From positions 1 through 26,662 of the forward strand of contig JAHLWS010000086.1 of NCBI GenBank assembly GCA_019057795.1: a DNA stretch of 26,662 nucleotides, given 5' to 3'. How positions within the stretch are numbered: the first letter of the stretch is position 1; the number at the start of each line of letters is the position of its first letter. Both the position numbers and the translations under genes were made by a program. The stretch is from Promethearchaeota archaeon. GTDB lineage: Archaea; Asgardarchaeota; Lokiarchaeia; Sigyniarchaeales; SOKP01. The notes under the pieces were generated by a model that was not told where the DNA came from, ran no database searches, and saw nothing but the letters and a program-made list of their open reading frames with translations. Of the stretch, positions 12,013 to 26,591 are shown piece by piece.

Positions 12013-12134
12013 TATTAAGCCGCATAAAACTCCAGACTCCTGTCTGGAGATGTAGCGGCAGCCCGAAGGGCTCAAGCTCGTTTTTCGCTTGTAGCCAAAA
12101 GATGCCCCCAGCTCCTGCTGGGGGAGTTTCACTA
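12013..12134 (+). mobile_element. non-autonomous IS200/IS605-type miniature element, copy 2
   Basis: Identical direct repeat of 7353-7474. Confidence 0.8.
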
Positions 12135-12436
12135 CCACTTAATAAAGTTCGAATTATATATGGCTTATTTAAGTATAAAAAGTAAAATGCTTAGTGAGGA
12201 ATTGTACCTATCAAGGTTCAAGAGTATTTAATGTTCCAGAGGAGAAAAGAAGCGATGTGAATATTGCAGTTCATAAGGTAGCTTATTAACCTAAAGAAAA
12301 TTTAGAATTGGGTCCATAGATTGAGAGAGGGTTAAAAGGTGTAAAATAAATCAATAGTGTTTAAAATTAATATTTAGAGGTTTTATAAAATAAGCTAAAA
12401 ATTATTGTTATTTTCTCTCGATATTTCTTTTTTTAA

Positions 12437-12545
12437 TGTTATAATAATAAGTACAAAAGGGAGTGCGATTTGCCAAAATTACGCTCCCTTTTTATGGCTA
12501 TACCGAAAGATTTAACTTCCGTTTTCCTTTCGGTTTTTTATTTTA
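12437..12545 (+). promoter_or_regulatory. extended -10 promoter followed by two terminator-like hairpins (leader or small RNA upstream of rep gene)
   Basis: TGTTATAAT at 12437-12445; AAAAGGGAGTG...CGCTCCCTTTT (12455-12493); ACCGAAAG...CTTTCGGT plus T-run (12502-12545). Confidence 0.55.
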
Positions 12546-12685
12546 TTAGACTTAAATATATTCTCCGGAAATTATAAAAATACTGCAAAAATCAGTAAAT
12601 CATACTCATCTTAAAACTATTCAGGCCTGGAGGTGATATATAGCGGTTAAACCCTTAATTCATACCACGCCAAAAAAGGGTTTAA

Positions 12686-13735
12686 ATTATATTTAAAAGT
12701 ATAAATGAGTACATAAAATACGAGTATAGTCTAATACCAATTGATAGGGAAAAGAAACCTTATATATATTGGAAGTCCTACCAATATAAAAAAGCAAACA
12801 TAGAAGATATTTTTGGTTGGTATAATAAATTTCGTGATGTAAATATTGGAATAGTTACCGGGAATATAAGTAAGTTAGCGGTTATTGATGTTGACGATCC
12901 TAATCTCTTGCCGGAGTTAAAAGAATATTTACCGGAGATAAAAGAAACAACCAGGGTTAGAACGAGAAGGGGGTATCATTACTATTTCTCTCTCAGTGGC
13001 GAATACGTTAAAAGCACCAACAACTTATTCGGCAAAAGACTTGAATTAAAAAGTAATGGAACCTATGTTGTGGCTCCCCCATCGATAATAAAAGCCCATC
13101 GATATGTTTTTGAAATTCCTCTTAGTGAGATGCTTCCCATACCAAAATTATTAATCAAAAAAGAAAGGGAACTGGCTTTTTGTGTAGAGGATAGAGAGCA
13201 TAAAGTTTTTAAAATACCAAAATATCACGGTCAAAAAGTTGACTGCATACGCCAGATATTAAGTAGGGATTTAGAGGAAGGAGAGAGAAACAACAGCTTA
13301 TTTATTCTCTATAATCTCTTACTCCAAAATAAGAATACGGAAGAATATTCAAAAAAGTTAGTTATTAATAAAAACAAATCATTATCAAAACCCTTAACTG
13401 AATTGGATTTAAAAAAGTTCTGCCGGAAAGCTTATAAGTATGGGTGTAGTGGTATCAGAGATAAGCTTGCTTATATAAAATGTGAGGCTTGCGGGTATAG
13501 GTTTAAGGATGGTAAATTAAAAGATAGTAATATTTTGATTAAAAATATAAGAATTTTGCCGGAATTAAGTAATGCTCAACGCGGAGTAGCTTGTCTTTTG
13601 GGAACCGTTTTTGAGGGTGAATATCCTTCGATAAACAAGATAGCAGAAACAGCGAATATGAATTTTGGAACTGTTAAGCATGCAATTAAAATATTAAAAG
13701 AAATGCTGGTTATCGATGAGGCTTTGTATAACTAA
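12686..13735 (+). CDS. bifunctional DNA primase/polymerase (Prim-Pol, AEP superfamily) with PriCT-like domain, Cys cluster and C-terminal HTH
   Basis: Frame open from 12686: SLIPI..EKKPYIYW, NIGIVTG.ISKLAVIDVD, TRRGYHYYF, YVVAPPS, EGERNNSLF, C...CEAC and terminal HTH. The TTG start at 12908 would omit catalytic motif I. Confidence 0.88.
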   Translation: MIFKSINEYIKYEYSLIPIDREKKPYIYWKSYQYKKANIEDIFGWYNKFRDVNIGIVTGNISKLAVIDVDDPNLLPELKEYLPEIKETTRVRTRRGYHYYFSLSGEYVKSTNNLFGKRLELKSNGTYVVAPPSIIKAHRYVFEIPLSEMLPIPKLLIKKERELAFCVEDREHKVFKIPKYHGQKVDCIRQILSRDLEEGERNNSLFILYNLLLQNKNTEEYSKKLVINKNKSLSKPLTELDLKKFCRKAYKYGCSGIRDKLAYIKCEACGYRFKDGKLKDSNILIKNIRILPELSNAQRGVACLLGTVFEGEYPSINKIAETANMNFGTVKHAIKILKEMLVIDEALYN

Positions 13736-13744
13736 GATTATAAA

Positions 13745-13766
13745 ACCCCTTCAGTTTTTAAGGGGT
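13745..13766 (+). terminator. hairpin after Prim-Pol gene
   Basis: ACCCCTT...AAGGGGT. Confidence 0.45.
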
Positions 13767-14119
13767 GATTTCTATATTTTTCAAGGGTTTTAGCGTAAAA
13801 ATGCGGACTAATATACTAAGGTTTTAGGAATTTATCTCTTTCTTCTATTCTTTTATTTATTGTCTCATTTTTTATCTCTTGTCTTTATGGTATAAACGAA
13901 ATATCCAAAGAAGGATTTTAGAAAGTGATAGAAGCTTTAAAAAATTGAGGTCCCACTCTTTCTCTCTCCTTATAAATTATTACCAGGCCAGGACTCATGC
14001 TTAATTTAGATCTAATTTAATTCACTTTATCTAATCCTGATTTATCAATTCTGGCCACTCTGACTAATCTAATTTACCAGGTAAATTTAATCCACTCCGG
14101 CTATCCCTAATTTTACGAC

Positions 14120-16102
14120 TCAACCACGCGCGGGGCGGGTAGCTTTCCTTCCCCCTTAAATCCCCCCTAAAACCCCCCTCTTATCCCCCTTCTTTTTATT
14201 ATTGCTCCTTGCTTCAAGAGCTACGCCCGCGGGAACGCTCTCAAGCTTAAATGTAGGCTATGTCGCTCTGACGGTCCCGCTTATGCTCCGCTCTGTTCAG
14301 CACCGCAACAAAAAAAAGGTTAGGCTATGATTCATTAGGGGGGAAGCATTAAGGGGGAAGGAAAAACTACGGTCGATTCACCCCCTACTCTACAAGCATA
14401 AGCGCAGGTATTATCGAGACCCTCTCTCCCTTGCCCCGCCCCTGTTTGCGAACCTTTTCGTGCATCTGTCATCGTTTGTGATTTAGTCTTATCCCCTACA
14501 AAAAAGAGATAAAAAAAATAAATGAAAAAAACAAGAGCGGGGATTTTTTTATCTCCCTTTTTCGGTGGCTCTATTTATCGGATTCCATGCAGTTAAGCGA
14601 TAAGTAAAAACATCCAACTAATAAAAAGTTAAAAGAATTGCCTTTTATATATAAACTTTTTATTGTTGTATTTTTTACCTATCGCCAGGAGAAGAGGAGA
14701 GGCAATTCCCTCTCCTGGTAAACAGTAATTTACCAGGAGAAGAATTTGCCAGGAAAAAGCCAAAAGCAATAAGAATAATCACACTCAAAAAAAATAACTA
14801 TATTTTGAGAAAAAGAAAAATATAATTATTTTTTATTGTGTCATTAAAAATCACGAAGGTTAAATATTATGTGATAAGGGAAAATCACCCCCTATCACAT
14901 AATATTATTTTTTTAAAAAAGGGTTTCCGTCTAACTACCAGACAGAAGAACGGGTAATCCCAGGCAATAAGAGAAAAAAATTATTTAAGGTATATATTCT
15001 GGTTTTTTTCTCCTATTGCCTGAAACATTATTTATCGGATTCTTTGCGTTTACGCGATAAGTAAAAAAGACCTCAAAACAAAAAGAAAAACCCTTTTTGG
15101 TTTAAGATTTTTTTACCTATCGCGGGCCCTGTTAAGTGAGTATCTACTGAGCAGGGCAGGGAGAAGACGAACGCTTAAAAGATATATAAGAAGGGAAAAT
15201 CACCCCCTCTTATATATCTTTATTCTGATATAAAATGTGTAATGGTTAGCGAACAGTGGATTAGTCCTATCCCCGGAAAAACAAGATAAAAAGTAAATGA
15301 AGGAATAATTGCAGGAACTTTTTACCTTCATTTTCAGTGGCTAATGTTATCGGATTCTTAATGGTTGGCGATAAGTAAAAACATCCATAAATAAAATATT
15401 AAAAGACCTGTCTGCGTGCGGACACGCACAGGCAGAAGAGAAACATTTTATTTATGTAGTTTTCACCTATCGCCAGGGAAGGATCATCTTTTTTTCTTCT
15501 CTTTGCAATTTCTTCTCCTGGCGTTTGTAGAAGCCAGTGCCGCAAAAAATTCTCCTGCTTAAATTGTTTGCCTGCATTTTTTTGCGGTGCCTGAGTCTTC
15601 TATAAACGCCATCGGTGCCGCACATATAATCTCTTAGGATAGTTTTAGTTTTTTTTATCTGCTCTACCTGGAGTGTACACACGCAGGCAGATAAAAAATA
15701 TTTAAACGTAGAAGTATAGTGAACAGGAACAGGGAGGGAAGGTGGGGAAGCCATCCGATGACTAGAAATAGAGATTTTTCCCTACGATAAGAAGTATCTA
15801 ATTTAGCCCGCCTTTATATTTTTAACCAGGCTAAAAAAGCTTTTTGTTGGTTAAAAATATAATGCTTTTTTTGCTATACATAACAAAGCTTTATCGGATA
15901 AGATATGCATGAAATTATTTCTTGTAGAATGTCCGATAGAGTCTTGTTATGTATTGGCAGACTTTCAAATAAGCTTCTTAGCAAAAAAGCTCTTGGCGGG
16001 CGGTCGTGGGGGTGAGATGACCAGAAGTTATTTACCAAGAAGTCAATAAAAGCAGGTTAACAGATCATTTTAATAAAATACCGAGGGAGAGAGAAAAAGA
16101 GG
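14120..16102 (+). ncRNA. putative large structured non-coding RNA or folded ssDNA region with repeated hairpin modules
   Basis: No credible ORF; dense array of long inverted repeats; three TTATCGGATTC...GCGATAAGTAAAAA...ACCTATCGC modules; two GGGAAAATCACCCC-capped hairpins with different stems. Confidence 0.6.
15981..16102. repeat. cargo-slot left repeat L1
   Basis: About 122-bp imperfect direct repeat of 17152-17273 (TGGCGGGCGGTCGTGG...AGGTTAACAGATCATTT...GAGAGAAAAAGAGG). Confidence 0.9.
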
Positions 16103-16147
16103 CCATCTACAATCGATTTCAATAATTTTCCTAATGATTATTATATT

Positions 16148-16813
16148 CTAAGTGGGGTTACTATTTTTAAATCTCATACCGGATGCAATCATTAATTGCA
16201 ATGTTCTCGATAGATGAGTGTTTTCAACATAAGGAGTATCTTTTTTATTCATAATCTTTAAAATCTTAGCAATCATTTCATCTATTGTGATAACTTTAAG
16301 TTTTATATTTACTTTCTTTTCTTTGAAATAATTCTTAATATCTTTAGAATTCTCAAAATCGCTTTTATCCTTTAATGATCCTTTTGTTATTTTGGTACAT
16401 AATATTACATATTCTAGTTCTATTTCTTTAGTATCAACAACATTTAATTCTTTTCTTAATATTTTCAAGAATGAATTAGTCCATCTATGTATACAAAGTT
16501 CTCTGAATGCACACCAATCATCTTTTCTTCCAGTAGTTTTAGTAGGTTGGTTATTTAAAGCATTCTCCAATGTATTTTTGAATTTTGATATGTTAAAACC
16601 GCCCTGCCACGATTTGCAGCTAACAGTAATAATTTTATTTCTTTCATTAGTATCAATAGTTATTAAATCTATATCAGAATGTACAGAATCATATTTGGCT
16701 ATATATGTTGGTTCTTCTTTTGATGGTCTAAATTTAATATTATGTTTTGTAAAGCAACCAACTTTTTTAGAATAAAAATCTTCTGCAATTTGTTCTAATA
16801 TATCTTCTTTCAT
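16148..16813 (-). CDS. putative PD-(D/E)xK-fold nuclease (restriction-endonuclease-like cargo)
   Basis: MKEDILEQ...HSDIDL...VSCKSWQGG (E..D..SxK variant); ATG at 16813 after GAGGT RBS. Confidence 0.7.
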   Translation of the reverse strand: MKEDILEQIAEDFYSKKVGCFTKHNIKFRPSKEEPTYIAKYDSVHSDIDLITIDTNERNKIITVSCKSWQGGFNISKFKNTLENALNNQPTKTTGRKDDWCAFRELCIHRWTNSFLKILRKELNVVDTKEIELEYVILCTKITKGSLKDKSDFENSKDIKNYFKEKKVNIKLKVITIDEMIAKILKIMNKKDTPYVENTHLSRTLQLMIASGMRFKNSNPT

Positions 16814-16897
16814 TATTACCTCACTTGAAATAATCGAACTACTTCGTTTATGCACGACTCTAGGTGAAATTTCGAAAATTAACCACCAATATTCCTT

Positions 16898-16960
16898 GTG
16901 GCGTATTTTTGTAGATTCTTAGCTTATCATAAACCTATTTTTATAATTCTACAAATAATA
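16898..16960 (-). promoter_or_regulatory. cargo-slot right repeat R1 containing a sigma70 promoter
   Basis: Repeat of 18124-18186; minus strand TTGTAG-N17-TATGAT. Confidence 0.75.
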
Positions 16961-17011
16961 GGGCTGTGATCATAAAATTATAACCGTATAAATCGGTAAA
17001 AATCGGTTAAC

Positions 17012-17090
17012 AAAAAGGGGAATGCTATAAAAATAACATTCCCCGAAAAGATATAAAGAAAAGGAATGCACTACTAAACCTTTTCCCTGC
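17012..17090 (-). ncRNA. putative small RNA of about 80 nt
   Basis: Minus-strand TTGATG-N17-TATATT with extended TG (17125-17097) and intrinsic terminator GGGGAATG...CATTCCCC-TTTTT (17044-17012); no convincing ORF. Confidence 0.5.
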
Positions 17091-17151
17091 ATATCAAATA
17101 TATCACGGGTTTAAGAAAACATCAAACGTTAATTACAATATTCCACGCCTG

Positions 17152-17273
17152 GCAAAAAATGCTCCTGGCGGGCGGTCGTGGTAGAAGCAGATGAGCATAA
17201 GTTTTTACCAGGAAGGCAATCAAAGTAGGTTAACAGATCATTTAATAAAATACTGGGGGGAGAGAAAAAGAGG
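17152..17273. repeat. cargo-slot left repeat L2
   Basis: Imperfect direct repeat of 15981-16102. Confidence 0.9.
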
Positions 17274-17390
17274 TTTCGAAAATAAGGATATCCCCCCAAC
17301 TCTCAAAATAATCATGCCTATAAATAATAATGAGGTTAGTCTGTATGGGCTTCTTCAATTTTTGTATATTTTTTCAAAAGGAATACCTCT

Positions 17391-18029
17391 TCAGTCTTCC
17401 TGCACCCACTTAAGGCTTTCCACGCTTTTCTGGGTGTTATTATAAAGAAGTTCCAATTCGTTACCTTGGGGATACAATTGAGTATCTCGAATTTGAACGC
17501 TAAAAAATGTATCAGTACTCATGGGACCAGAAGGGGAATAGCTGACAAAGCTTACCTGCGTTCTATTATCCTTTTTCCAAGTAAAAACCCGTCCCCCCGG
17601 GTAATCTTGTTGGATTCGTCCGTTGAGATAAAGTTTTTCCAGCGAGACAAGAAATGCCCTCAGCACCGACTTCTCTGACGAATAGTGTTCAAGATTAAAA
17701 GGTCGATCTAAATTGATCACACATTCAACAGCAGTACCATTTATAAAATTGATAGACACAAAAGAAGACGCTTGGTAGTCATGGAGCTCAAAATTGCAAT
17801 TGAAAGAGACCTTATTAGTGAATGGTTTCAGAACCTTAAGAAACTCAGGAGGAATTGCCTGGTTAGATTTCATATCGTCTCTGAAAGCACGAATGTCTTC
17901 AGCAGTAAATAACTCTGCGCCAAAGTCTTTACATTTCTCCAAAACTTGGGCAGTCGATTTCTGCATCAGTTCGCACGCAAAAGGTATATGAAAGAAGTTG
18001 GTTCCTTTTCTATCTATAGATTTATTCAT
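17391..18029 (-). CDS. hypothetical protein (cargo)
   Basis: 212-aa ORF, AGGAG RBS, promoter in repeat R2. Confidence 0.75.
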   Translation of the reverse strand: MNKSIDRKGTNFFHIPFACELMQKSTAQVLEKCKDFGAELFTAEDIRAFRDDMKSNQAIPPEFLKVLKPFTNKVSFNCNFELHDYQASSFVSINFINGTAVECVINLDRPFNLEHYSSEKSVLRAFLVSLEKLYLNGRIQQDYPGGRVFTWKKDNRTQVSFVSYSPSGPMSTDTFFSVQIRDTQLYPQGNELELLYNNTQKSVESLKWVQED

Positions 18030-18123
18030 TTGCTTATTAACTCCTATTTCTGATTATATTTTTTTATTTTTAAGCATAAAATTACCAAATAAAATGGCTT
18101 ATAACTTAAAATAATCTAACTAC

Positions 18124-18186
18124 GTGGTATGTTTTTATAAATTCTTAGATTATCATAAACTAATTATATTAATTCTGCAAATAATA
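18124..18186 (-). promoter_or_regulatory. cargo-slot right repeat R2 containing a sigma70 promoter
   Basis: Repeat of 16898-16960; minus strand TTGCAG-N17-TATGAT. Confidence 0.75.
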
Positions 18187-18337
18187 TTTTTATATTAGTT
18201 AGAACTATTTTTGGCGGGGAAGGGGCCGCTTGTATCGAGGGGGCTCCTTTTTTAGTTTTATAAAATAAGGAGTATTTATAAGGAAATCAAAGGAATAGGA
18301 AGCTTTATACATTATAAAGGGCGATAATGTTCTAATA

Positions 18338-18366
18338 TTGACTATTATATTAAAATATGATAATAT
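18338..18366 (+). promoter_or_regulatory. sigma70 promoter of the DUF1659-DUF2922-lysis operon
   Basis: TTGACT-N17-TAATAT with extended TG. Confidence 0.6.
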
Positions 18367-18449
18367 GAACATATATAACATTTAGCTTTGCTTGATTTAA
18401 AACCCGTCCTCGACCTGATCGGGGATTCTAAAAAAGGAGGTGAAAAATA

Positions 18450-18677
18450 ATGGCAATAGTAGTAACCGTTCCTCGTGATTCATCCTTACAGTTTAGACTG
18501 GTAGTAGGTAGTAATCCGGAAACCGGAGCACCTATCATCAACAGCAAGACCTTTACTAAGATCAAATCAGCTGCTTTAGACCAAGACGTCTATGATACAG
18601 CTAATGCTTTAGTAGGTCTGCAGAAGTACCCTTTAGATGAAATCAGACTTGAAAGAGAATCCCAACTTACTGAATAA
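18450..18677 (+). CDS. DUF1659-family protein
   Basis: SSLQFRLVVG...G.PIINSKTFTKIKSAALDQDVYDTANALVGLQKYPL matches my recollection of the family; AAGGAGGTGA RBS. Confidence 0.8.
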   Translation: MAIVVTVPRDSSLQFRLVVGSNPETGAPIINSKTFTKIKSAALDQDVYDTANALVGLQKYPLDEIRLERESQLTE

Positions 18678-18724
18678 TCACTAATAATTGTAAAACCATA
18701 AACAAAAAAGGAGGTGAAAAATAA

Positions 18725-19000
18725 ATGGCAACCGAATTAGGAGAAGTAACCAGTTATAAAAGACTCTATATGCAGTTTAGGGATAGTGCTGCAAAAACTA
18801 TCAACATCACTTTGAATAATCCTAAAAATTTGGAGGATGGCGATTACGTCGACTTTGCGGCACAAGATGCAGCTATTGAAGGAGTTATGGATACTATAAT
18901 CGCCAAGAATATCTTCCATAATAATGGTAATGACTTAGTGGCTAAGGTCAATGCTCGGATACTTGATTACAAGTCTACTGATGTTATGGATGTTGGCTAG
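18725..19000 (+). CDS. DUF2922-family protein
   Basis: KRLYMQFRD...KTINITLNNPK...IEGVMDTIIAKNIF...LVAKVNARI; AAGGAGGTGA RBS. Confidence 0.8.
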   Translation: MATELGEVTSYKRLYMQFRDSAAKTINITLNNPKNLEDGDYVDFAAQDAAIEGVMDTIIAKNIFHNNGNDLVAKVNARILDYKSTDVMDVG

Positions 19001-19140
19001 TCGTTAGTGAATAGTGAATAGTCGTTAGCCGGAAAAGCGAGAAAGCAAAGAAGTGGGCTAATAGCTAGGAAATAAATTAATATAATATTCTTCCTTGGAG
19101 GGCTCCGCGGACCTTCCCGGGGAGAGAGAAGGAGTAATAC

Positions 19141-19503
19141 ATGTTAGAAGTATTTGTCACTAAATATTTATTAGATTTCGCTCTTGTTTTTCTTGTTGGT
19201 TTGGCCTCTAAATTTATTATCAATAAGTTTGGCCAGGACAGGGCAGACAAAATAAAAGAGGCTATTCTGGCAGCTATGCTTTGGGCAGAAGAAGAGTTGG
19301 GAATAGGGAATGGTGAGGAAAAATGGAAAATTGCCTGGGTCAAATTAATTGAAATATTAAGGAAACAGAAAGTTAGCTTAAAAGAGGGCGAGATTTCCTA
19401 TGTAAAGGATCTTATGAAAGCTACTGTTCCGGAGGTGAACGAAATTATCTATAAGGCTATGCCGGATGTAGTAAGGAACGGTAGGACTTTAAAGTATAAA
19501 TAA
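19141..19503 (+). CDS. phage holin, LL-H-like
   Basis: Single N-terminal TM then A..WAEE...G.G.EK motif; directly upstream of endolysin. Confidence 0.7.
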   Translation: MLEVFVTKYLLDFALVFLVGLASKFIINKFGQDRADKIKEAILAAMLWAEEELGIGNGEEKWKIAWVKLIEILRKQKVSLKEGEISYVKDLMKATVPEVNEIIYKAMPDVVRNGRTLKYK

Positions 19504-19506
19504 ATT

Positions 19507-19884
19507 ATGGATATGATTAATGACATAGAATTAACTGAATATTTTTCTTTATATGAGTTTGATTGCCCCTGCTGCAGGCGGGTTATGTTGTCTCCGGACC
19601 TTTTGGCCAGACTGAATCATTTAAGAAGGGTTATAAATAGGCCGGTATATGTAAATTCCGGTTACCGGTGCAAAGAAGAAAATCATAAGGTCGGGGGAGC
19701 TCCCGGTTCTTATCATCTCCTGGGTATGGCGGTAGATATTCACGCAGGCGATTTTTTACTTTATGATCTTCTCACTTTTGCTCATGAAATGGGATTTAAT
19801 GGTATTGGATATTACGAAAAGAAAAATTTCTTACATCTCGATATTAGGCCTGGACCAAAGCACACTTGGAAAGGAAATAAGTGA
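19507..19884 (+). CDS. peptidase M15A (Zn D-Ala-D-Ala peptidase fold) endolysin
   Basis: FSLYEFDCPC, VNSGYRC..N..VGGA..SYHLLGMAVD, GIGYY...FLHLDIR motifs. Confidence 0.9.
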   Translation: MDMINDIELTEYFSLYEFDCPCCRRVMLSPDLLARLNHLRRVINRPVYVNSGYRCKEENHKVGGAPGSYHLLGMAVDIHAGDFLLYDLLTFAHEMGFNGIGYYEKKNFLHLDIRPGPKHTWKGNK

Positions 19885-19885
19885 A

Positions 19886-20089
19886 TTGGATATTGAATAT
19901 GTACTAAAATTAATAGCAAATAACGGCTTTCCCCTGGTGCTTTCTGTATATTTAGTATGGAAATTAGATTTTTTTATTGCTGAAATAATTAAAAATCAAA
20001 AGGAATTTTCCCATAATGTTACTGCTGAAATCAAAGAAATTAAGGGGGCAATCAATGAATTACGGGTTGATTTTGCTAAAAATCAATAA
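19886..20089 (+). CDS. YvrJ-family small membrane protein (holin-like)
   Basis: IANNGFPLVLSVYLVWKLD plus coiled coil; TTG start at 19886 after AAGGA. Confidence 0.75.
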   Translation: MDIEYVLKLIANNGFPLVLSVYLVWKLDFFIAEIIKNQKEFSHNVTAEIKEIKGAINELRVDFAKNQ

Positions 20090-20389
20090 GCATGTCCTCG
20101 TGAAAACGGGGAACCATTGAAATATAAGGTTTTTGGCGTTTTTGAAAAAAGCTTCTAATTTGGCGTATACGAGGCGTATTTATCCGAACTTAATGAATCA
20201 TACCAGCCACCTTAAAATAAGCGCTAAAAACACGCTTAAATTAGATATTGTTTTTCGTGGTTCCTGGAAATCACTGCTTTTAGCCTTCTTTTCTCTTATA
20301 TACTCTCTATTACTACTATATTCTCCTATTCTCTTCTATATTTACCATATTAACAAAGAAATCCTTAGGATTTAAGGGCTTATATTTAA

Positions 20390-20553
20390 CTACACATTAT
20401 TTAGAACACTAACAGGAAGATTAATTAACTCCTTTAGTTTATAGGTGTTTCGTAATTCTGCTATAATTTCACCCCAGCATAAAGTTCCAAATGTTTCCAA
20501 TAGTGGAAGCCAGACAATAACCAGCTCTTTGGCAATCAAGCCAAAGGACTTTT
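20390..20553. repeat. att-like scar A: antisense recombinase-like tail, tRNA 3'-end-like GGAAGCCA, terminator
   Basis: Minus strand WLPLLETFGTLCWGEIIAELRNTYKLKELINLPVSVLNNV*; homologous to 24508-24630; hairpin CTTTGGC/GCCAAAG. Confidence 0.75.
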
Positions 20554-20740
20554 ATAGTTTTTTATATTTTTTTATAGAAAAGAAGGATTTTTAAAACTTT
20601 TGTCGTAATGTCTAGTTAGAAGTAATTTGATTTTATTATTTTATAATAATTAAAAAATAAGTTTCTTTTAAGTAATTAGTTATGTCAAATGTTGAAACCC
20701 GATTCGCATTACTTGGAACAGCAGGAGGTAGAAAAAGAAA

Positions 20741-21985
20741 GTGGCAAGAACACCCCTTCAAAAGCTTTGTGTTGAATTACAGCGGTTGAAAGGTATGTAT
20801 TTTACTGCAAGATTTTCGTTTGAAGAAACTGGTAAATTGGTTAAAAGCCAGATACACAAAAGTGAAATTAATCCAAAAGATCCTATACACATAAAAATAG
20901 ATGATAAAAATTATATTATAGCGCAAGATGGATATACTTTTTTACGACAAACTAAATGGCAATTTCCAAGATATCTTCGGGAAACCATCTTAGTACGTCT
21001 TATTTCCGCTCTGGAAGTATTTTTGATAGAAGTTGCCCGTGAACTTTTTTTACATAGGAGAGATATATTTTTTTCTGATCGACAAATAATATTTCCTCAA
21101 CGTGAGATTTTATCTATGAATTCTATCACCGAAATTTGGTCAAAAGTACTTAAGTTTGAACTTCGCAAACTTCAAAATCAGGGATTCAAAGAGTTTGTTA
21201 AATTTTATGATCGGAGATTAGGAATCGATGTTGGTCGTTCACCAGTGAGCATCAAATTAATTCAAGAGATGCACGACCGTAGACATCTTTTAATTCATCG
21301 ACTTGGTAATACCGACGAAAAGTATAGACGCGATTATAGCGAAAGAAAAAAGCGTATTAGTGTACCAGAAAATTATCTTTTAAATTCCATTTCTTCAATC
21401 AATGATTTTGCAGAATTTCTTTGGAAACAGTCACTAAATGTATTACAAGGAGTTCAAATTAAAAAGGAATGTGAAGACTTGCGTATAGAGGAAATTGTTA
21501 TTGAAATATTATCAGAAGGAGATTCAACATTAATTAATCCAAGTTACCATTTTTACGTAGAGGATTATATTATCTCTCTATCGGATATTCTTGAATCCAA
21601 GGATGTGGAAACTGAAAAATCTACAATTAAACTTAAAATATCAGGTCCGTCGCCATTTATCAAGGAATATATGAAGCGTATCAAGAATGCTGCAAAGATA
21701 GGTGAATTAATTCTTCATAGTAGACGAGCAATTAAATTTCCTCAAAAAAAAGTTCGATGTCGTTTAGAGGATTCAGAAATTGAGTCAATTGCACGTAAAT
21801 TACCACCGCAACCATGGCAAAAAGGAATACATAAGGAAATTGCGGCAATTAAAGGTATAAGTAATCGTCAGGCTAATGCAGCAATTTCAAAAATTCTCGA
21901 TGATCCGAAATTAAAATCACTAATAAGTAAAAAATATGTGCCTAACAACAATATTCACTTAGACAAGCAGGGTGGTGGCATTTAG
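20741..21985 (+). CDS. HEPN-domain protein with C-terminal HTH (candidate defence RNase)
   Basis: ISALEVFL...RRHLLIH (RxxxxH) HEPN motifs; LPPQPWQKGIHKEIA HTH tail; GGAGGT RBS and GTG start. Confidence 0.7.
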   Translation: MARTPLQKLCVELQRLKGMYFTARFSFEETGKLVKSQIHKSEINPKDPIHIKIDDKNYIIAQDGYTFLRQTKWQFPRYLRETILVRLISALEVFLIEVARELFLHRRDIFFSDRQIIFPQREILSMNSITEIWSKVLKFELRKLQNQGFKEFVKFYDRRLGIDVGRSPVSIKLIQEMHDRRHLLIHRLGNTDEKYRRDYSERKKRISVPENYLLNSISSINDFAEFLWKQSLNVLQGVQIKKECEDLRIEEIVIEILSEGDSTLINPSYHFYVEDYIISLSDILESKDVETEKSTIKLKISGPSPFIKEYMKRIKNAAKIGELILHSRRAIKFPQKKVRCRLEDSEIESIARKLPPQPWQKGIHKEIAAIKGISNRQANAAISKILDDPKLKSLISKKYVPNNNIHLDKQGGGI

Positions 21986-22294
21986 AAGCTTTAACATTTT
22001 ACTCAAAGGATCGTAGGGCTACTCCTTCCGGATTCTGAGTTCGTATATAACAGAAGATACAGGCAATTTCAAGTCCTTTGTTTTACGAAGGGCTTTTTAA
22101 TAAAAAAAGGATTTTTAAAAGATTTGTCGTATAATAAATGTAGAAATTATATTAATGCAACGAAGCACTTCACAAAACATAGTAATTTAGGAGCATAAAC
22201 AAGGTAGCTCGGCTAGTACAATACTGTATTTAAAAAGGAAGAATTGATTTTGTGAAAACTTGCTACGAAATGAGAAAAGCTCAAGGAGAATAAA

Positions 22295-24190
22295 ATGGAC
22301 GAAAAAGAATGGTTTAAAAAAGGTGTTGACCTTGCAAAACTCAAAAGATATGAAGAGGCAATAAAGGCTTTTGAGAAAGCCATCGAGTTAAATCCACAGA
22401 ATGATAAAGCTTGGTTTAAAAAAGGTTTTAACCTTGGTGAGCTCAAAAGATATGAAGAGGCACTAAAGGCTTTTGAGAAAGCCATCGAGTTAAATCCACA
22501 GAATGATCCAGCTTGGTATAATAAAGGTTTTAACCTTGGTGAACTCAAAAGATATGAAGAGGCACTAAAGGCCTACAAGAAAGCCATCGAGTTAAATCCA
22601 CAGAATGATGGAGCCTGGTATAATAAAGGTTTTAACCTTGGTAAACTCAAAAGATATGAAGAGGCAATAAAGGCTTTTGAGAAAGCCATCGAGTTAAATC
22701 CACAGAATGATGGTGCTTGGAATAATAAAGGTTTTTGCCTTAGTGAGCTCAAAAGATATGAAGAGGCAATAAAGGCTTTTGAGAAAGCCATCGAGTTAAA
22801 TCCACAGAATGATGGTGCTTGGAATAATAAAGGTTATTATCTTAGTGAACTCAAAAGATACGAAGAGGCAATGAAGGCCTATGAGAGAGCCATTGAAATA
22901 AACCCGAAGAATGATAAAGCCTGGGTAAATAAAGGTGTCTACCTTACTCAGAGCAAAAGATACGAAGAGGCAATGAAGGCCTATGAGAGAGCTATTGAAA
23001 TAAATCCGAAGAATGATAGAGCTTGGCATAATATAGGTTTCTGCCTTGGTGAACTCAAAAGACATGAAGAGGCAATAAAGGCTTTTGAGAAAGCCATTGA
23101 GTTAAATCCACAGAATGATAGCGCCTGGTATAATAAAGGTTATTATCTTGGTGAACTCAAAAGATACGAAGATATGATAAATGCCTATGATAAAGCCATT
23201 GTAATAGACCCTATGAATGATAAAGCCTGGGTAAATAAAGGTGTCTACCTTGCTAAACACAAAAGATATAAAGAGGCAATAAAAGCTTATGAGAAAGCCA
23301 TTGTAATAAATCCAGAGGAAGCTTTAGTATACAGCAACTTAGGAGAACTTTACTTAGATCTTGGAAATCTTGAAGATGCTTCTACAAGAACTAAAGAGGC
23401 ACTTAAGAGAAATGAGAATCTTGCTTTTACATTAAGCCTACAAGGGAGAATCAATATTGAAGAAAAAAAATATGACGCTGCAAGTAAGTTCTTTAAAAGA
23501 GCGATTTCTTTGGATATAGGTAATCCAAAACATTTCCTTTGGGAGGCTTATGCAAACTATCTAAAGGCAAAATTTTCTTTCGGCTCAAAAAGTGAAAAGT
23601 ACCAAGAAGAGCTGATAGGAATCATAAGAAACCTGGAAAGGGCAGATTCAATAAGTAAAAAACATGGAGAGGAAATGAGGCCTTATATCCTATATTTTTT
23701 AGGCTGTTTCTATCTTAAGAGTGAGGATATTTTTACAGCAAAGGAAAAATTTGAAGAGTGTATCAAATTAGAATCAAAATCTCCAATAGAAACCTCTGCC
23801 CGTGAAAAGCTCAGAAATATATGGAACTATAAAATTAAACCACCCTGGTTGCACTGGTGGTTAAATTCACCTTTTTGTCTCTGGCCTAAGAGGATTGGAT
23901 TTATTATTCTTGCAATGTTTATTCTTGTTATTTTTGCATCGTTATCGCTTCACCCATTTATTCCTGGGTGGTTTCCTTCTCTACAAGTAAACTGGACCTT
24001 ATATGGATTTCTTATTACAATTTTGATTATTATACTCATTTCACCGAGCATAGAACATATAAAGGTAAGAGATGTTGAAGTAGTAATGTGTTCACCTCCC
24101 CCCTTCGGACCCGTTCTATCTCCTATGGTAATGGAAGAAAAAATAAAAGAGATAGAAAAAAAATATCCGGAGTTGGAATCACTAAGCTGA
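22295..24190 (+). CDS. TPR-repeat protein with two C-terminal TM helices
   Basis: Tandem 34-aa repeats AWxNKGxxLxELKRYEEAIKAFEKAIELNP; AAGGAG RBS. Confidence 0.92.
   Translation: MDEKEWFKKGVDLAKLKRYEEAIKAFEKAIELNPQNDKAWFKKGFNLGELKRYEEALKAFEKAIELNPQNDPAWYNKGFNLGELKRYEEALKAYKKAIELNPQNDGAWYNKGFNLGKLKRYEEAIKAFEKAIELNPQNDGAWNNKGFCLSELKRYEEAIKAFEKAIELNPQNDGAWNNKGYYLSELKRYEEAMKAYERAIEINPKNDKAWVNKGVYLTQSKRYEEAMKAYERAIEINPKNDRAWHNIGFCLGELKRHEEAIKAFEKAIELNPQNDSAWYNKGYYLGELKRYEDMINAYDKAIVIDPMNDKAWVNKGVYLAKHKRYKEAIKAYEKAIVINPEEALVYSNLGELYLDLGNLEDASTRTKEALKRNENLAFTLSLQGRINIEEKKYDAASKFFKRAISLDIGNPKHFLWEAYANYLKAKFSFGSKSEKYQEELIGIIRNLERADSISKKHGEEMRPYILYFLGCFYLKSEDIFTAKEKFEECIKLESKSPIETSAREKLRNIWNYKIKPPWLHWWLNSPFCLWPKRIGFIILAMFILVIFASLSLHPFIPGWFPSLQVNWTLYGFLITILIIILISPSIEHIKVRDVEVVMCSPPPFGPVLSPMVMEEKIKEIEKKYPELESLS
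22304..23330 (+). repeat. 102-bp intragenic tandem repeats (TPR units)
   Basis: About ten units, near-identical at DNA level (GAGAAAGCCATCGAGTTAAATCCACAGAATGAT). Confidence 0.9.
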
Positions 24191-24507
24191 AAAAACTTTA
24201 AACTATGTTTTCGAAATTAATAATAGAAGTGGGAGAAAAAAAGTCATTCTTTTGATATAACGGAGGATAAAAGAGAAGACAAAGATTTCTCTGAATTGCC
24301 CTGGGCAACTTCTTTTATCCAAAAAATCAGGGGATGATTATTTGATTCACAATATCTATTATTAAAAGAATATATATTGAGAAATTTGATTATAAAATAA
24401 AAAGAGTGAACTAAAGAAGATGACTTTCTTTATAACTTACCCTTATAATATATGGTTAGAATGAGAGTAGGGAATATACTTATCTATGAATAGGTAATGA
24501 GAAGAGG

Positions 24508-24673
24508 TCAAATAGGATTCATAGTGCTTGCCGGAATGCTAATTAACTCCTTTAGTTTATTGATATTCTGCAATTCCTCTAAAATCTCACCCCAACAAAA
24601 AGTTCTAAACGTGTCCAATAGGGGGAGCCAGACAATTCCATAGGCAGAACTTCTTTATCGGAGGTTCTGTCTA
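24508..24673. repeat. att-like scar B plus hairpin
   Basis: Minus strand WLPLLDTFRTFCWGEILEELQNINKLKELISIPASTMNPI*; plus strand GGGGGAGCCA-GACAAT; hairpin TAGGCAGAACTTC/GAGGTTCTGTCTA. Confidence 0.8.
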
Positions 24674-24681
24674 TTTAATTT

Positions 24682-24875
24682 CTAACAGATGCCAATTACT
24701 TCTTCCAACTTTTGATACACATTTTCAGTTTCATTATTCATACAAAAGTTGCGAAACTCGTCCTGTCTGAGGAGCCTGACATTTCCAGCCCTTTGGCATT
24801 TTGCTGAAGGGCTTTTTTGTTTTTTATAAATTATTTTTCAGAAAAAGAAGGATTTAGGGAAAATTTGTTGTAGAT
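24682..24875. repeat. att-like scar C plus terminator and promoter
   Basis: Minus strand RLLRQDEFRNFCMNNETENVYQKLEEVIGIC*; plus strand TCCTGTCTGAGGAGCC; homologous to 26397-26591. Confidence 0.8.
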
Positions 24876-25085
24876 ATATACAAGATGGTTTAGAAGAATA
24901 AGCAAAAGTCCATTGAACAATTTTGTATTAAGAGTGACTAACTATAGTAAGAAATATCCGTAAAACTGTGAATAATAAATCTTTTGGTAGGATAAACCCA
25001 GTAAACGTCTATCCGTAGTTAGAAACAATGCGGTCCTATATAGAAATGTTAATCATACAAAGTTAATTAAAAAGGAGGTGCCGAT

Positions 25086-25424
25086 ATGGCAACTATTTTT
25101 GCTGTATACAATCTAAAAAGGAACCAAAGAACTGAGGAATTCGACAACTATCTCATCAAAACAAAAATCCCAGGGATTAGGGGTGCACCTTGGTGCACAG
25201 ACTTTAAAACCTGGAAGATAGACAAAGTTTTTGGCCCTGCCGTTTCTGAACCAGAGGGAGAATTACCTGCAGAACCTCCCTATATGTATGTGGCCAAGAT
25301 TGAGGTATCTAATTTGGATGCGATGGTGAGTTTTCTCGGGACTGATGCAGGCAAGGAATTTGTCAAGTCCTGGAGCGTGTATATCGATCCAACAGCGATC
25401 TTTACCATGGGGCATGAGGTATAG
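25086..25424 (+). CDS. dimeric alpha-beta barrel protein (EthD/HapK-like)
   Basis: YNLK...EEFDNY...KIP, PPYMYVAKIEV pattern; AAGGAGGTG RBS. Confidence 0.65.
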   Translation: MATIFAVYNLKRNQRTEEFDNYLIKTKIPGIRGAPWCTDFKTWKIDKVFGPAVSEPEGELPAEPPYMYVAKIEVSNLDAMVSFLGTDAGKEFVKSWSVYIDPTAIFTMGHEV

Positions 25425-25619
25425 TAATATATTCAAAAGTTATTAACAAGAAAAGGGCCGCACTGCTTCTAACAGGGAATACAAGCTGCTGCACTCAATG
25501 CCCAATTGTGTTCTGGGGTAGCATTAGAGAATTTTAAAATAAATAATAAGTGTGGATATAAAGAGTTAGACGCGATTTCAGCCCGTTTATACTAGTAAGA
25601 AAAAAGGAGGTAACATATC

Positions 25620-26018
25620 ATGGCTCAGAATGATGATGTTAAAGTGTTGAAAGTCACCTTGATAATTTTCGCGGTTATAGCGTTTGTCTATGGGTTCGGT
25701 TTGTTGTTTGTTCCTGGCCTATTGGCAAGCTTATCAGGGGGAAACCCTGTTGAATTCAGCTGGTTACGATGGTCTGGAGGTCTGATCATCGGACTTGGAA
25801 TAGGTTGCTTAATGGTTTCTAGTAAACCTGAAAAACAGGGTATCTTTGTAACATCGATGGCATTGGCTACTTTATTTGCCGGTCTAGGGATGCTATACGC
25901 TTGGATTATGCAGGAATATAGCGGAGCAACCTGGTTTATTGCATTACCAACTTGTCTTCTTTTGGTACTATCCGCTCTATTCTGGTGGGCTCGTGGACAG
26001 GCTAAAGGGATTCTCTGA
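25620..26018 (+). CDS. four-TM membrane protein
   Basis: Four hydrophobic segments; AAGGAGGT RBS. Confidence 0.8.
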   Translation: MAQNDDVKVLKVTLIIFAVIAFVYGFGLLFVPGLLASLSGGNPVEFSWLRWSGGLIIGLGIGCLMVSSKPEKQGIFVTSMALATLFAGLGMLYAWIMQEYSGATWFIALPTCLLLVLSALFWWARGQAKGIL

Positions 26019-26240
26019 TCAGGACACATAGTGATGTATTCAAGTATCGAGCAGGATATTAGGATATCTTTCTCTCTATCCCATATTTTCTTATAATTTC
26101 ATAGTTATACTCAGTGATTAGAAGAAATCATAAAAGACGAGCTGAAACAGCGTCTAACCTTGAAATTTTATTCTAGGTAAGTTTTCCTAAATATGAGTAT
26201 AAAATAAGTAAAGAACCTCAGTTTCCTTTAAGGTAATTAT

Positions 26241-26390
26241 TTAAGTAGTCAAGTAAATTCCTATATGCCCAGCACTGACTCTTTTCATCTTAAGACTTAT
26301 CTTATCCCATAAAAGCACGCTTTCAGACATCAACCTGGGGAGACAAGATAATCAAAAGGCAGGACTTCTTAATTAAAGTTTCTGCTTTTT
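26241..26390. repeat. att-like scar D (degenerate) plus hairpin
   Basis: CCTGGGGAGACAAGATAATC then GGCAGGACTT...AAGTTTCTGCTT hairpin like scar B; minus strand CLPRLMSESVLLWDKISLKMKRVSAGHIGIYLTT*. Confidence 0.55.
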
Positions 26391-26396
26391 TAATTC

Positions 26397-26591
26397 TTAA
26401 CAAATGCTAATTAATTCTTCTAACTTCCGATATACTTTTTCCGTTTCATCCCTCATACAAAAGTTGCGAAAATCGTCCTGTCTGGGGAGCTCGTCAATTT
26501 CCAGCCCTTTGGCCTTTGCTAAAGGGCTTTTTCATTTTTTTTAAATTATTTTTATAAAAATGAAGGATTTTTAAAAGTTATGTCGTATACT
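26397..26591. repeat. att-like scar E plus terminator and promoter
   Basis: Minus strand ELPRQDDFRNFCMRDETEKVYRKLEELISIC*; plus strand TCCTGTCTGGGGAGC; AGCCCTTTGGC/GCTAAAGGGCT-T run; AGGA-N14-GTCGTA. Confidence 0.8.

Follow-up and report, generated by a model that had tools for sequence, protein, structure and literature searches.

A probable tRNA-Asn-anchored island of large serine recombinase scars on a mis-binned Atribacterota contig

Tandem accretion of elements at a single integration target is described for the cis-mobilizable elements (CIMEs) of the ICESt1/ICESt3 type (Pavlovic 2004; Bellanger 2011; reviewed in PMC5704250), and tRNA-proximal islands built by tycheposons are described in Prochlorococcus (Hackl et al., bioRxiv 10.1101/2020.12.28.424599). 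Here, we report a comparable array on contig JAHLWS010000086.1 of the assembly GCA_019057795.1, which is deposited as a Promethearchaeota archaeon; the window analysed is this entire contig (C86 of its bin), 26,662 nt in length. The stretch from 20.4 to 26.66 kb is probably an accreted island composed of attR scars of large serine recombinases (LSRs) and of cassettes, formed behind a tRNA-Asn(GTT) gene of the phylum Atribacterota.

In the account that the review gives of CIMEs (PMC5704250), att-bounded units devoid of an integrase stand in tandem at one target and autonomous relatives have the same specificity, as is the case here; growth, loss and gene capture through the choice among att copies would be a further likeness, which for the present array we infer. 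The CIMEs of that account depend on tyrosine recombinases and on long segments of identity, in most cases in the 3' terminal part of a gene for a protein, whereas here we find an LSR, a core of 7–10 nt and a tRNA end, and every unit carries a copy of the tRNA terminator and of a promoter. The tycheposon islands are similar in being adjacent to tRNA genes, in the cargo modules lying between partial tRNA/att copies, in the incoming elements pushing the older ones inward, and in the presence of degraded elements and co-transferred flanking DNA. However, they occur in a different phylum, their hallmark is a tyrosine recombinase together with a primase-helicase (27 of the 937 integrase-carrying elements in that study use an LSR), and their scars are partial tRNAs, whereas in our array about 8 nt of the tRNA are repeated and the recognisable scar is the C-terminal tail of the recombinase.

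With regard to the enzymes, the recombinases described below share with the canonical large serine integrases of phiC31, Bxb1 and A118/LI (PMC3556126, PMC1470463) the succession of Resolvase, Recombinase and Zn-ribbon domains with a coiled coil, a short core and the four att forms, but differ from them in that attP is located within the 3'-terminal part of the integrase gene itself and that a tRNA 3' end is targeted; mycobacteriophages with serine integrases (Int-S) do not use tRNA genes (PMC9262239). An attP inside the recombinase gene, a tRNA target and the partition of the gene on integration are known from the split integrases of the SSV1 type (PMC8371274), in which, however, partition inactivates a gene of another enzyme superfamily, whereas here 25–40 residues are swapped and the integrated open reading frame (ORF) of 493 aa keeps all its domains. 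Similarly, in the mycobacteriophages BPs and Brujita (Broussard 2013, as described in PMC9262239) a phage gene contains the attP used at a tRNA, the C-terminus is replaced and the adjoining host base creates a stop codon, as in the LSR case; the difference, in that description, is that the truncated gene is a repressor, which loses an ssrA-like degron, and that the integrase is of the tyrosine type. By analogy, a regulatory role of the LSR tail can be put forward as a hypothesis. The best-studied serine integrases are not known to use tRNA genes, and the sre gene of phage R4 reportedly has attP within its coding region. Co-oriented small cassettes at one anchor are also typical of integrons, including the archaeal ones and the CALIN arrays (clusters of attC sites lacking integrase), but IntI/attI, attC sites with R''/L''–L'/R' boxes and a single Pc promoter are missing, each cassette having instead its own promoter-like box and terminator. 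Our literature search turned up no LSR described as having attP at the 3' end of its own gene and a tRNA as target. The array can be considered a new variant of tRNA-anchored island accretion, in which the enzyme is an LSR that carries attP within the 3' end of its gene, the core derived from the tRNA is very short and the scars are recombinase tails.

From 20.39 kb to the contig end, four junction units are interposed between unrelated cargo genes on the + strand. A full unit comprises, on the + strand, a reverse-complemented ORF tail and the core (G)GGGAGC(C), from which a GACAAT-like spacer leads to a G+C-rich hairpin with a T run and to a promoter-like box (AGAAAAAGAAGGATTTTTAAAA..TTGT(C/A)GTAT). 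The repeat search of the window revealed a repeat of 104 nt with 81% identity (D4, 20415–20518 and 24533–24636), one of 251 nt with 75% identity (D2, 24622–24872 and 26337–26587) and a hairpin and promoter block present in four copies (D3, at 20550, 22074, 24815 and 26530). A sequence-only reading of this DNA had reported five sites resembling the 3' end of a tRNA and an additional degenerate unit, all of which were found where it had placed them by the repeat search and in the sequence itself. Its 17-mer consensus fits two of the five sites (up to 3 mismatches; 0.02 expected by chance), whereas the core of 7–10 nt, GGGGAGC(C), is common to all of them, in degenerate form at 20504–20513 and 26337–26345. 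The three types of minus-strand tail that it distinguished are also present, namely A (40 aa; 20393–20512 and 24511–24630), B (31 aa; 24685–24777 and 26400–26492) and F (35 aa; 26241–26345). The spacer and the + strand terminators after the sites are there as well, but the hairpins are of two types, HP1 (AGCCCTTTGGC...GCTGAAGGGCT) and HP2, and not of the single type that had been proposed. HP1 and HP2 score as + strand intrinsic terminators at 20526–20547, 24640–24674, 24787–24813 and 26503–26528; terminator-like sites detected were 12, compared with 3.8 expected.

The nature of the core and of the hairpin emerges from related loci. ARAGORN called tRNA-Asn(GTT) in six of them (L014, L041, L062, L068, L313 and L314), and in the first four the core, the spacer, HP1 and the box are found directly 3' of the intact gene; the same arrangement of core, HP1 and box is seen in L033 and L037, where tRNA-Asn is cut by the locus end. 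All of the tRNA-Asn loci lie downstream of dnaG-rpoD and the tRNA ends in ...GTAGGTTCGAATCCTACCCGGGGAGCCA. Since core, hairpin and box stand directly 3' of tRNA-Asn, the core is the 3' end of the acceptor and the hairpin the terminator of the tRNA, together representing attB. The sequence-only reading had attributed the sites to a tRNA-Asn end, and indeed the tRNA-Asn(GTT) of Atribacterota ends in ...CCTACCCGGGGAGCCA, followed by the GACAAT spacer, the hairpin and the promoter box. The right half of every junction unit is thus recognisable as the native DNA downstream of tRNA-Asn, that is the terminator and, in most species, the next promoter. L037, with the tRNA, and L028, with an A tail, have more than 150 nt of right flank in common, starting from exactly GGAGC, and represent an empty-site/occupied-site (attB/attR) pair. 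A DNA scan with the 3' half of tRNA-Asn was too generic, this sequence being conserved across bacteria, but brought up the LSRs beside tRNA-Asn of other phyla that are described below.

The left half of the units leads to the recombinase. The scan of metagenomes with the DNA of the A tail provided 120 loci with 140 tail sites, followed by HP1 at 115 sites and by HP2 at about 10. In L261 the tail is contiguous with a long LSR ORF, which is truncated at the 5' end, contains one in-frame stop and ends in ...RSPFYMIAKCGQTKNWLPLLDAFRTFKGNITTENVRLNQLILQY before its stop codon; the recombinase genes of L315 (P0016) and L319 (P0100) run in the same way straight into WLPLLD.FRTF... tails, and the LSR genes that run into tails show the catalytic-serine N-terminus MKAIILARVS. 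A protein search with the 42-aa A tail returned two read-through ORFs only, and the full-length gene came from the DNA pattern scan. Searching with the L261 ORF yielded 99 relatives of 404–562 aa, nearly all of which have the Resolvase, Recombinase and Zn_ribbon_recom domains; this domain set is encoded beside an att site in the related loci L313, L314, L315, L319 and L261 and in P0003–P0101. The nine closest relatives, of 493 aa and 83–94% identical, end in ...NWLPG or NWLPV, which is the antisense reading of CCCGGGGAGCCA plus a stop codon. Ends made of antisense-tRNA peptides (..DSNLRP..) were found in 46 of the 99 relatives, and the native D.FRTF.W tail in eight (P0016, P0022, P0026, P0046, P0074, P0080, P0084 and P0100), with P0026, P0046 and P0074 among the more distant ones. 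The A and B tails of the window align with the D.FRTF.W tails of these intact LSRs; at the same Arg position the A type uses AGA and the B type CGC, so that the signature is one of protein. The AlphaFold2 (AF2) model of P0074 is that of a standard LSR with catalytic domain, zinc ribbon and long coiled coil, in which the tail forms two helices predicted with moderate confidence. The tails are therefore C-termini of LSRs: their recombinase origin, already suspected in the sequence-only reading, is supported by the genes of L261, L315 and L319, while the enzyme is an LSR and not the tyrosine integrase of SSV1 type that had been invoked.

At least 23 codons are kept in 175 of the 182 unique A-type tails. 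The ratio of non-synonymous to synonymous substitutions (dN/dS) is 0.34 in the A' class and 0.25 in the 24-aa class, versus 0.77–0.89 in shifted frames, and is uninformative for the 40-aa A class (0.47 versus 0.45 in the control frame). This conservation is the mark of a coding past and possibly of a continued use, two conditions that dN/dS cannot separate. No A or B tails were found in viral contigs, and in 40 relatives of the bin tails occurred in one genome only, on short contigs. Weak tail matches to ORFs of 440–470 aa were discarded, as these encode unrelated proteins (an aminotransferase N-terminus and others). Two mosaic tails (L197 and L201) have an A-type start (LPLLETFRTFC) and a B-type end (MSDETEKVYQKLEEVISIC), indicating recombination between tail types within the FRTFC codons.

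Members of the same group of recombinases were observed at other places. An intact LSR of 512 aa, 43% identical to the L261 gene, is encoded on contig C50 (G000; 12767–14316), and over its final 21 codons it runs antisense to a tRNA-Gln(TTG) gene on the minus strand (14243–14316). It belongs to an integrated element with an LSR of this clade but with a different tRNA as target, and the far end of the element was not found on contig C50. LSR genes also abut tRNA-Asn in antisense in L111, L118, L121 and L131, belonging to Sandaracinobacter, Sphingopyxis, Paceibacteria and Saccharibacteria, which indicates that the clade of LSRs targeting tRNA ends is not confined to Atribacterota.

All four att forms, with the common core GGGGAGCCAG, were recovered: attB in L062 (CCTACCCGGGGAGCCAGACAATTTCCAGCCC), attL in L313 (CCTACCCGGGGAGCCAGTTTTTAGTTTGGCC), attP in L261 and also in L315 (GTCCAATAGGGGGAGCCAGTTTTTAGTTTGGCC; also given as GTCCAATAGGGGGAGCCAGTTTT...) and, intact, in L319, and attR in the arrays (GTCCAATAGGGGGAGCCAGACAATTTCCAGCCC), where the succession of tail, core and HP1 is that of the window and of about 250 other junctions. 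In L313, from an Atribacteria single-cell assembly, and in L314, dnaG-rpoD-tRNA-Asn is directly followed by a reverse-strand LSR gene that overlaps the tRNA by 15 nt, and the tRNA end continues into GTTTTTAGTTTGGCCACATTTGGC, the 3' coding sequence of the LSR; an HTH_3 gene is found behind the LSR, and the cargo of L313 includes a type IIG restriction-modification enzyme. In 192 loci, the left arms (tRNA-Asn or tails A–F) and the right arms (HP1, HP2 or LSR body) meet in many combinations at one core. Depending on the right arm, different bases occupy the three positions behind GAG, which places the crossover within GGGGAG(C). As the junctions consist of P arm, core and host B' arm, which is the composition of attR, they can be interpreted as scars of whole-element integrations.

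Two side observations concern the arms. In five junctions (L195:3221, L236, L243, L304 and L248) an A or E tail with the core is followed by an inverted tRNA T-arm (GG.TAGGATTCGAACC) and no hairpin; these are possibly products of recombination in the wrong orientation or a second target on the other strand. Moreover, the minus strand of spacer and HP1 (20514–20552, 24779–24823 and 26493–26535) reads ..KPFSKIAKGLEIVW.., resembling the ..SPFYMIAKCGQTKNW.. that the LSR itself has just before the crossover (P0001/P0002), and the HP1/tRNA terminator may be a fossil 3' end of a recombinase or share binding motifs of the enzyme.

Invariant gene content between the scars had been set in advance as the outcome that would speak against mobility; instead, content and order of the cassettes vary among relatives, and more than 100 environmental contigs carry the cassettes of the window beside neighbours that differ. 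The gene of a 132-aa DUF4345-like protein is a single-gene cassette in at least seven loci (L258, L043, L303, L035, L239, L210 and L226), with neighbours that are all different, and three loci have the same F tail behind it; the window copy has an extra gene in front. A lysis block with A tail, HP1 and box is kept in L305, L254, L285 and L298, and the cassettes that follow differ. The order B tail then A' tail of L319 (see below) is found also on C25, C72 and L261. Arrays devoid of an LSR are those of the window, C25, C72, L254 (at least seven units in 14 kb) and L033, and their autonomous relatives at the same tRNA are L313 and L314. In L319 an intact 562-aa LSR gene with attP is accompanied by cassettes with HP1 and box and by a scar of B tail, core and HP1 immediately 3' of its own tail; as an element with scars of its own, it shows that arrays also travel on elements. 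The same locus (L319:1–12531) has a small array of cassettes and contains genes for an AAA_25 and a SpoVG-like protein as well as a 191-aa ORF with a Phage_integrase domain.

The promoter-like box, which a scan for the sigma-70 consensus misses, has a wider distribution than HP1. It was scanned together with HP1 in G042 and G043, the genomes of L033 and L054: in the form AAGAAGGATTTTT-N8-12-GT(A/C)GTAT, 22 strict copies occur on about 17 contigs of one Atribacterota metagenome-assembled genome (MAG) of 2.4 Mb, with none in the reversed control, and HP1 occurs in seven copies on two contigs, confined to arrays. The box is likely to be a common host promoter and not one specific for cassettes; its upstream element is unusual, and the motif is a candidate for a promoter in general use in the phylum.

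We propose the following scheme for the formation of the island. The LSR gene of the element holds attP within its own last 25–40 codons, where TGG-CTC-CCC (W-L-P) reads antisense to the tRNA end GGGGAGCCA. Insertion at the tRNA's 3' end splits the gene about 25–40 codons before its stop: the LSR body remains at attL, now ending with ...NWLPG and a stop codon in antisense tRNA, and attR retains the native tail (WLPLLD.FRTF.W...), which is joined at GGGGAGC(C) to the GACAAT spacer, HP1 and the next promoter. The DNA between the units would then be the cargo of elements whose recombinase module has since vanished. An integrated element could excise with any of several attR copies, and arrays would thereby grow and shrink; in one outcome the distal cassettes would be left behind and attB restored at the tRNA (tRNA-core-HP1, as in L014 and L033), and in the other the resident cassettes would be picked up (cis-mobilisation, as with CIMEs). 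Homologous recombination among the units of 100–250 nt probably adds further shuffling, as the mosaic A/B tails and the cargo differences inside cassettes suggest. Of this scheme, comparison of the sequences shows that all four att forms exist, that LSR elements integrate at tRNA-Asn as their anchor, that the tails left at attR come from the cut LSR genes and that cassettes vary in order.

Several points weigh against this scheme. One LSR integration cannot multiply the B' arm, and nearly every internal junction has its own HP1; the scheme does not account for the first capture of HP1 with its flank. Recombination of attL with attR by a canonical LSR needs a directionality factor, and none was identified, a small HTH_3 gene being all that stands beside the LSR. 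Nor did any intact LSR turn up that ends in the window's tail of type A (40 aa) or B (31 aa); the closest intact LSR genes have a 29-aa A' tail or a truncated tail version. The MAG G042, which is incomplete, has at least seven HP1 units and no detectable LSR. The window and its companion contigs in the bin (for the LSR: the window, C25 and C72) are without LSR, attL and tRNA-Asn, the Atribacterota genome itself lying outside the bin, and for this reason the array of the window is tied to tRNA-Asn by homology with other genomes. Finally, the loci with att junctions were ascertained by the HP1 or the A-tail pattern, and the counts of arm combinations are biased accordingly.

The independent movement of cassettes proposed in the sequence-only reading, with an integrase acting in trans, is plausible. 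In its present form, single circles of non-autonomous cassettes would be recombined by an LSR in trans, through tail, core and HP1, at the site proximal to the tRNA; as the right arm of a cassette equals the host B' arm, each insertion would regenerate an attB-like site and the newest cassette would stand next to the tRNA. This would account for arrays that open with a perfect tRNA-core-HP1 although cassettes follow (L014 and L033), for a cargo and F tail that travel as a pair with varied upstream units, for tail ORFs that are mostly intact and, in the A' class, under apparent constraint, and for the resemblance of the HP1 minus strand to the P' coding sequence of the LSR (KPFSKIAKGL versus SPFYMIAKCG). 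A unit whose left half is of P type and whose right half is of B type is nevertheless an attR, and LSRs do not recombine attR with attB in the absence of a directionality factor; no cassette circle was seen, the viral contigs giving no tail matches, the dN/dS signal may date from the past of the tails in LSR genes and is absent for the 40-aa A class, and the arrays of L319 ride on a whole element. On balance we regard independent cassette circles as unlikely to explain the island. Somewhat less likely still is that, following a few ancient integrations, homologous recombination essentially shaped the array, including exchanges with DNA taken up from relatives, with the units of 100–250 nt serving as portable homology and site-specific activity having ceased. 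The units are 75–90% identical over 100–250 nt, the tails of L197 and L201 are mosaics with an A start and a B end, the cargo can differ inside a cassette at no junction (2.9 kb extra in L254), and intact LSRs are rare, the metagenome sample yielding a single pseudogene for its roughly 140 A-tail sites. But homologous recombination would not place the switches between left and right arm types, those between HP1, HP2 and LSR body included, at the same core of 7–10 nt in many combinations, and intact integrated LSR elements do exist at this tRNA (L313 and L314).

The two remaining explanations concern the nature of the tails. They are conserved and lie, on the transcribed strand, between the stop codon of the cargo and the terminator, as small genes or structured RNA/REP-like repeats in the 3' untranslated regions of cargo genes would; this is very improbable, since in L261, L315 and L319 they are contiguous with LSR ORFs, they align with the C-termini of intact LSRs while exchanging AGA and CGC Arg codons between A and B, and they are without start codons. 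Scars of elements with split tyrosine integrases of the SSV1 type, possibly archaeal, would follow the same logic, with attP inside the recombinase gene and a tail left at one end, and the contig is binned with an Asgard genome; yet the genes carry Resolvase, Recombinase and Zn_ribbon_recom domains and the MKAIILARVS N-terminus, the host is bacterial and the split removes the last 25–40 residues only, by which this origin is refuted. The preferred reading is an island of LSR scars accreted behind tRNA-Asn.

Along the window, this island begins with junction 1, whose A-type LSR tail on the minus strand (VWLPLLETFGTLCWGEII...NNV, then stop; 20390–20515, 81% identical in nucleotides to 24533–24636) is the P arm. 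Its core TGGAAGCCAG (20504–20513, + strand), compared with attB, attL and attP, is a degenerate form of the common core, and its B' arm (20514–20610, +) contains the GACAAT spacer, an HP1-variant terminator at 20526–20547 and a promoter-like box at 20580–20607. The first cargo (20741–21985, +) encodes a 414-aa protein with an RRHLLIH motif to which no family could be assigned and of which no copy was found in the other loci compared; the HEPN/defence assignment given to it earlier found no support in Pfam or PADLOC, whereas the earlier TPR and membrane protein calls for the following cargo stood. The degenerate junction 2 (22060–22135, +) consists of the spacer CAGGCAATTT, an HP1-like hairpin at 22070–22098 and a promoter-like box at 22104–22135; its tail and core are lost or replaced, and the sequence on the left matches nothing elsewhere. 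The second cargo (22295–24190, +) is a 631-aa tetratricopeptide repeat (TPR) protein, by Pfam, with ten repeats of 102 nt and a C-terminal membrane segment, the C-terminal part being 85% identical in L195.

Junction 3 is composite. Its first part (3a) has an A-type LSR tail (VWLPLLDTFRTFCWGEIL...NPI, then stop; 24508–24633, minus strand) and a core at 24622–24631 (+) identical to that of attB, attL and attP, after which comes the HP2 terminator hairpin (24640–24674, +; 15 pairs), an alternative right arm found after 23 cores in other loci. The second part (3b) has a B-type LSR tail (RLLRQDEFRNFCMNNETENVYQKLEEVIGIC, then stop; 24682–24777, minus strand), followed on the + strand (24769–24880) by the core GAGGAGCCTG, the spacer, an HP1 terminator at 24787–24813 and a promoter-like box at 24840–24880. 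Two cargo genes follow on the + strand: one for a 112-aa protein of no family (25086–25424), which is missing from the other copies of the DUF4345-like cassette, and that for the 132-aa membrane protein (25620–26018), whose similarity to DUF4345 (E 7e-5) is under the Pfam cut-off. Junction 4a has an F-type tail on the minus strand (CLPRLMSESVLLWDKISL...TT, then stop; 26238–26345), which other loci show linked to the DUF4345-like cassette, and the core GGGGAG at 26337–26342, where the homology of the window with L023 and L239 stops. It is followed by a second copy of the HP2 hairpin (26358–26386, +; within repeat D2) and by junction 4b, with a B-type LSR tail (ELPRQDDFRNFCMRDETEKVYRKLEELISIC, then stop; 26397–26492, minus strand) and, on the + strand (26484–26590), the core GGGGAGC, the spacer, an HP1 terminator at 26503–26528 and a promoter-like box at 26560–26590. 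The contig ends 72 nt past this unit, inside the leader of the next cassette, and since further units sit on the short contigs C25 and C72, the array extends beyond it.

To the left of the array, metabolic genes occupy 1–11.9 kb (by Pfam, a YheO-like PAS protein, serine dehydratase, the TRAP transporter DctPQM and M20 peptidases), and these host genes precede a cargo block at 12430–20389 (+) with an undefined left boundary, for which Pfam gives Prim-Pol, holin-like, M15 peptidase and YvrJ-like genes, besides an ORF-poor structured tract and two minus-strand genes. L305 is collinear with the block, as L254, L285 and L298 are with its 3' part, and each of them then continues with an A tail and HP1. 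At its left end core, HP1 and tRNA are all absent. A hairpin-rich miniature repeat of 122 nt (12013–12134) separates the host genes from the Prim-Pol block and may be the trace of a rearrangement or of an assembly join; either would account for the missing tRNA-Asn left of the array. The window contains no intact tRNA according to ARAGORN and Rfam, as the sequence-only reading had stated, nor an integrase, and Pfam shows no tyrosine recombinase in it.

The host of this DNA is bacterial. The bin has features fitting a Loki-type Asgard MAG, such as its size, 31% G+C and intron-rich tRNAs, and by ARAGORN contains 14–18 tRNAs, none of them a tRNA-Asn of Atribacterota type. The DctM of the window, however, shares 96% identity with its counterpart in a Caldatribacteriota MAG. 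When one genome per species was scanned for the exact HP1 pattern, 60 loci were obtained, mostly in Atribacterota MAGs and in the single-cell genome SCGC AAA255-G05, the remaining ones being short contigs scattered over assorted bins. On these sequence grounds, contig C86 is Atribacterota (Caldatribacteriota) DNA mis-binned in the Asgard MAG; C25 and C72 are likely, and C7 and C50 probably, part of the same contaminant. The island of the window should not, then, pass for Asgard biology, and its nature as an accretion island explains both the assembly breaks and the scatter of its pieces into wrong bins.

For the recombinases, the finding suggests that serine integrases with attP in their own gene and with the 3' end of tRNA genes as target form a large clade, at least 55 of the 99 relatives ending in antisense-tRNA peptides; islands of this kind are sensitively marked by the tails left behind. 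In Atribacterota, a sediment phylum that is uncultured and without genetics, attP/attB sites of about 50 bp and an LSR of 493–562 aa provide a testable recombination module. More tentatively, and with the balance of likelihood leaning against it, though less so than against free cassette circles, the system may be an LSR counterpart of integrons, in which an attB-like site is restored at each insertion, cassettes are stacked, shed and picked up by an LSR acting in trans or in cis, and the swap of the C-terminal 25–40 residues acts as a switch. The swapped part would be the two-helix tail D.FRTF.W..., often with hydrophobic LVA-, IAC- or FAL-like termini, and the stability or the directionality of the enzyme would depend on the integration state and on the last scar used. 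If tail swapping does regulate the enzyme, it would be a new way to set the direction of serine integrases, which are common tools of genome engineering.

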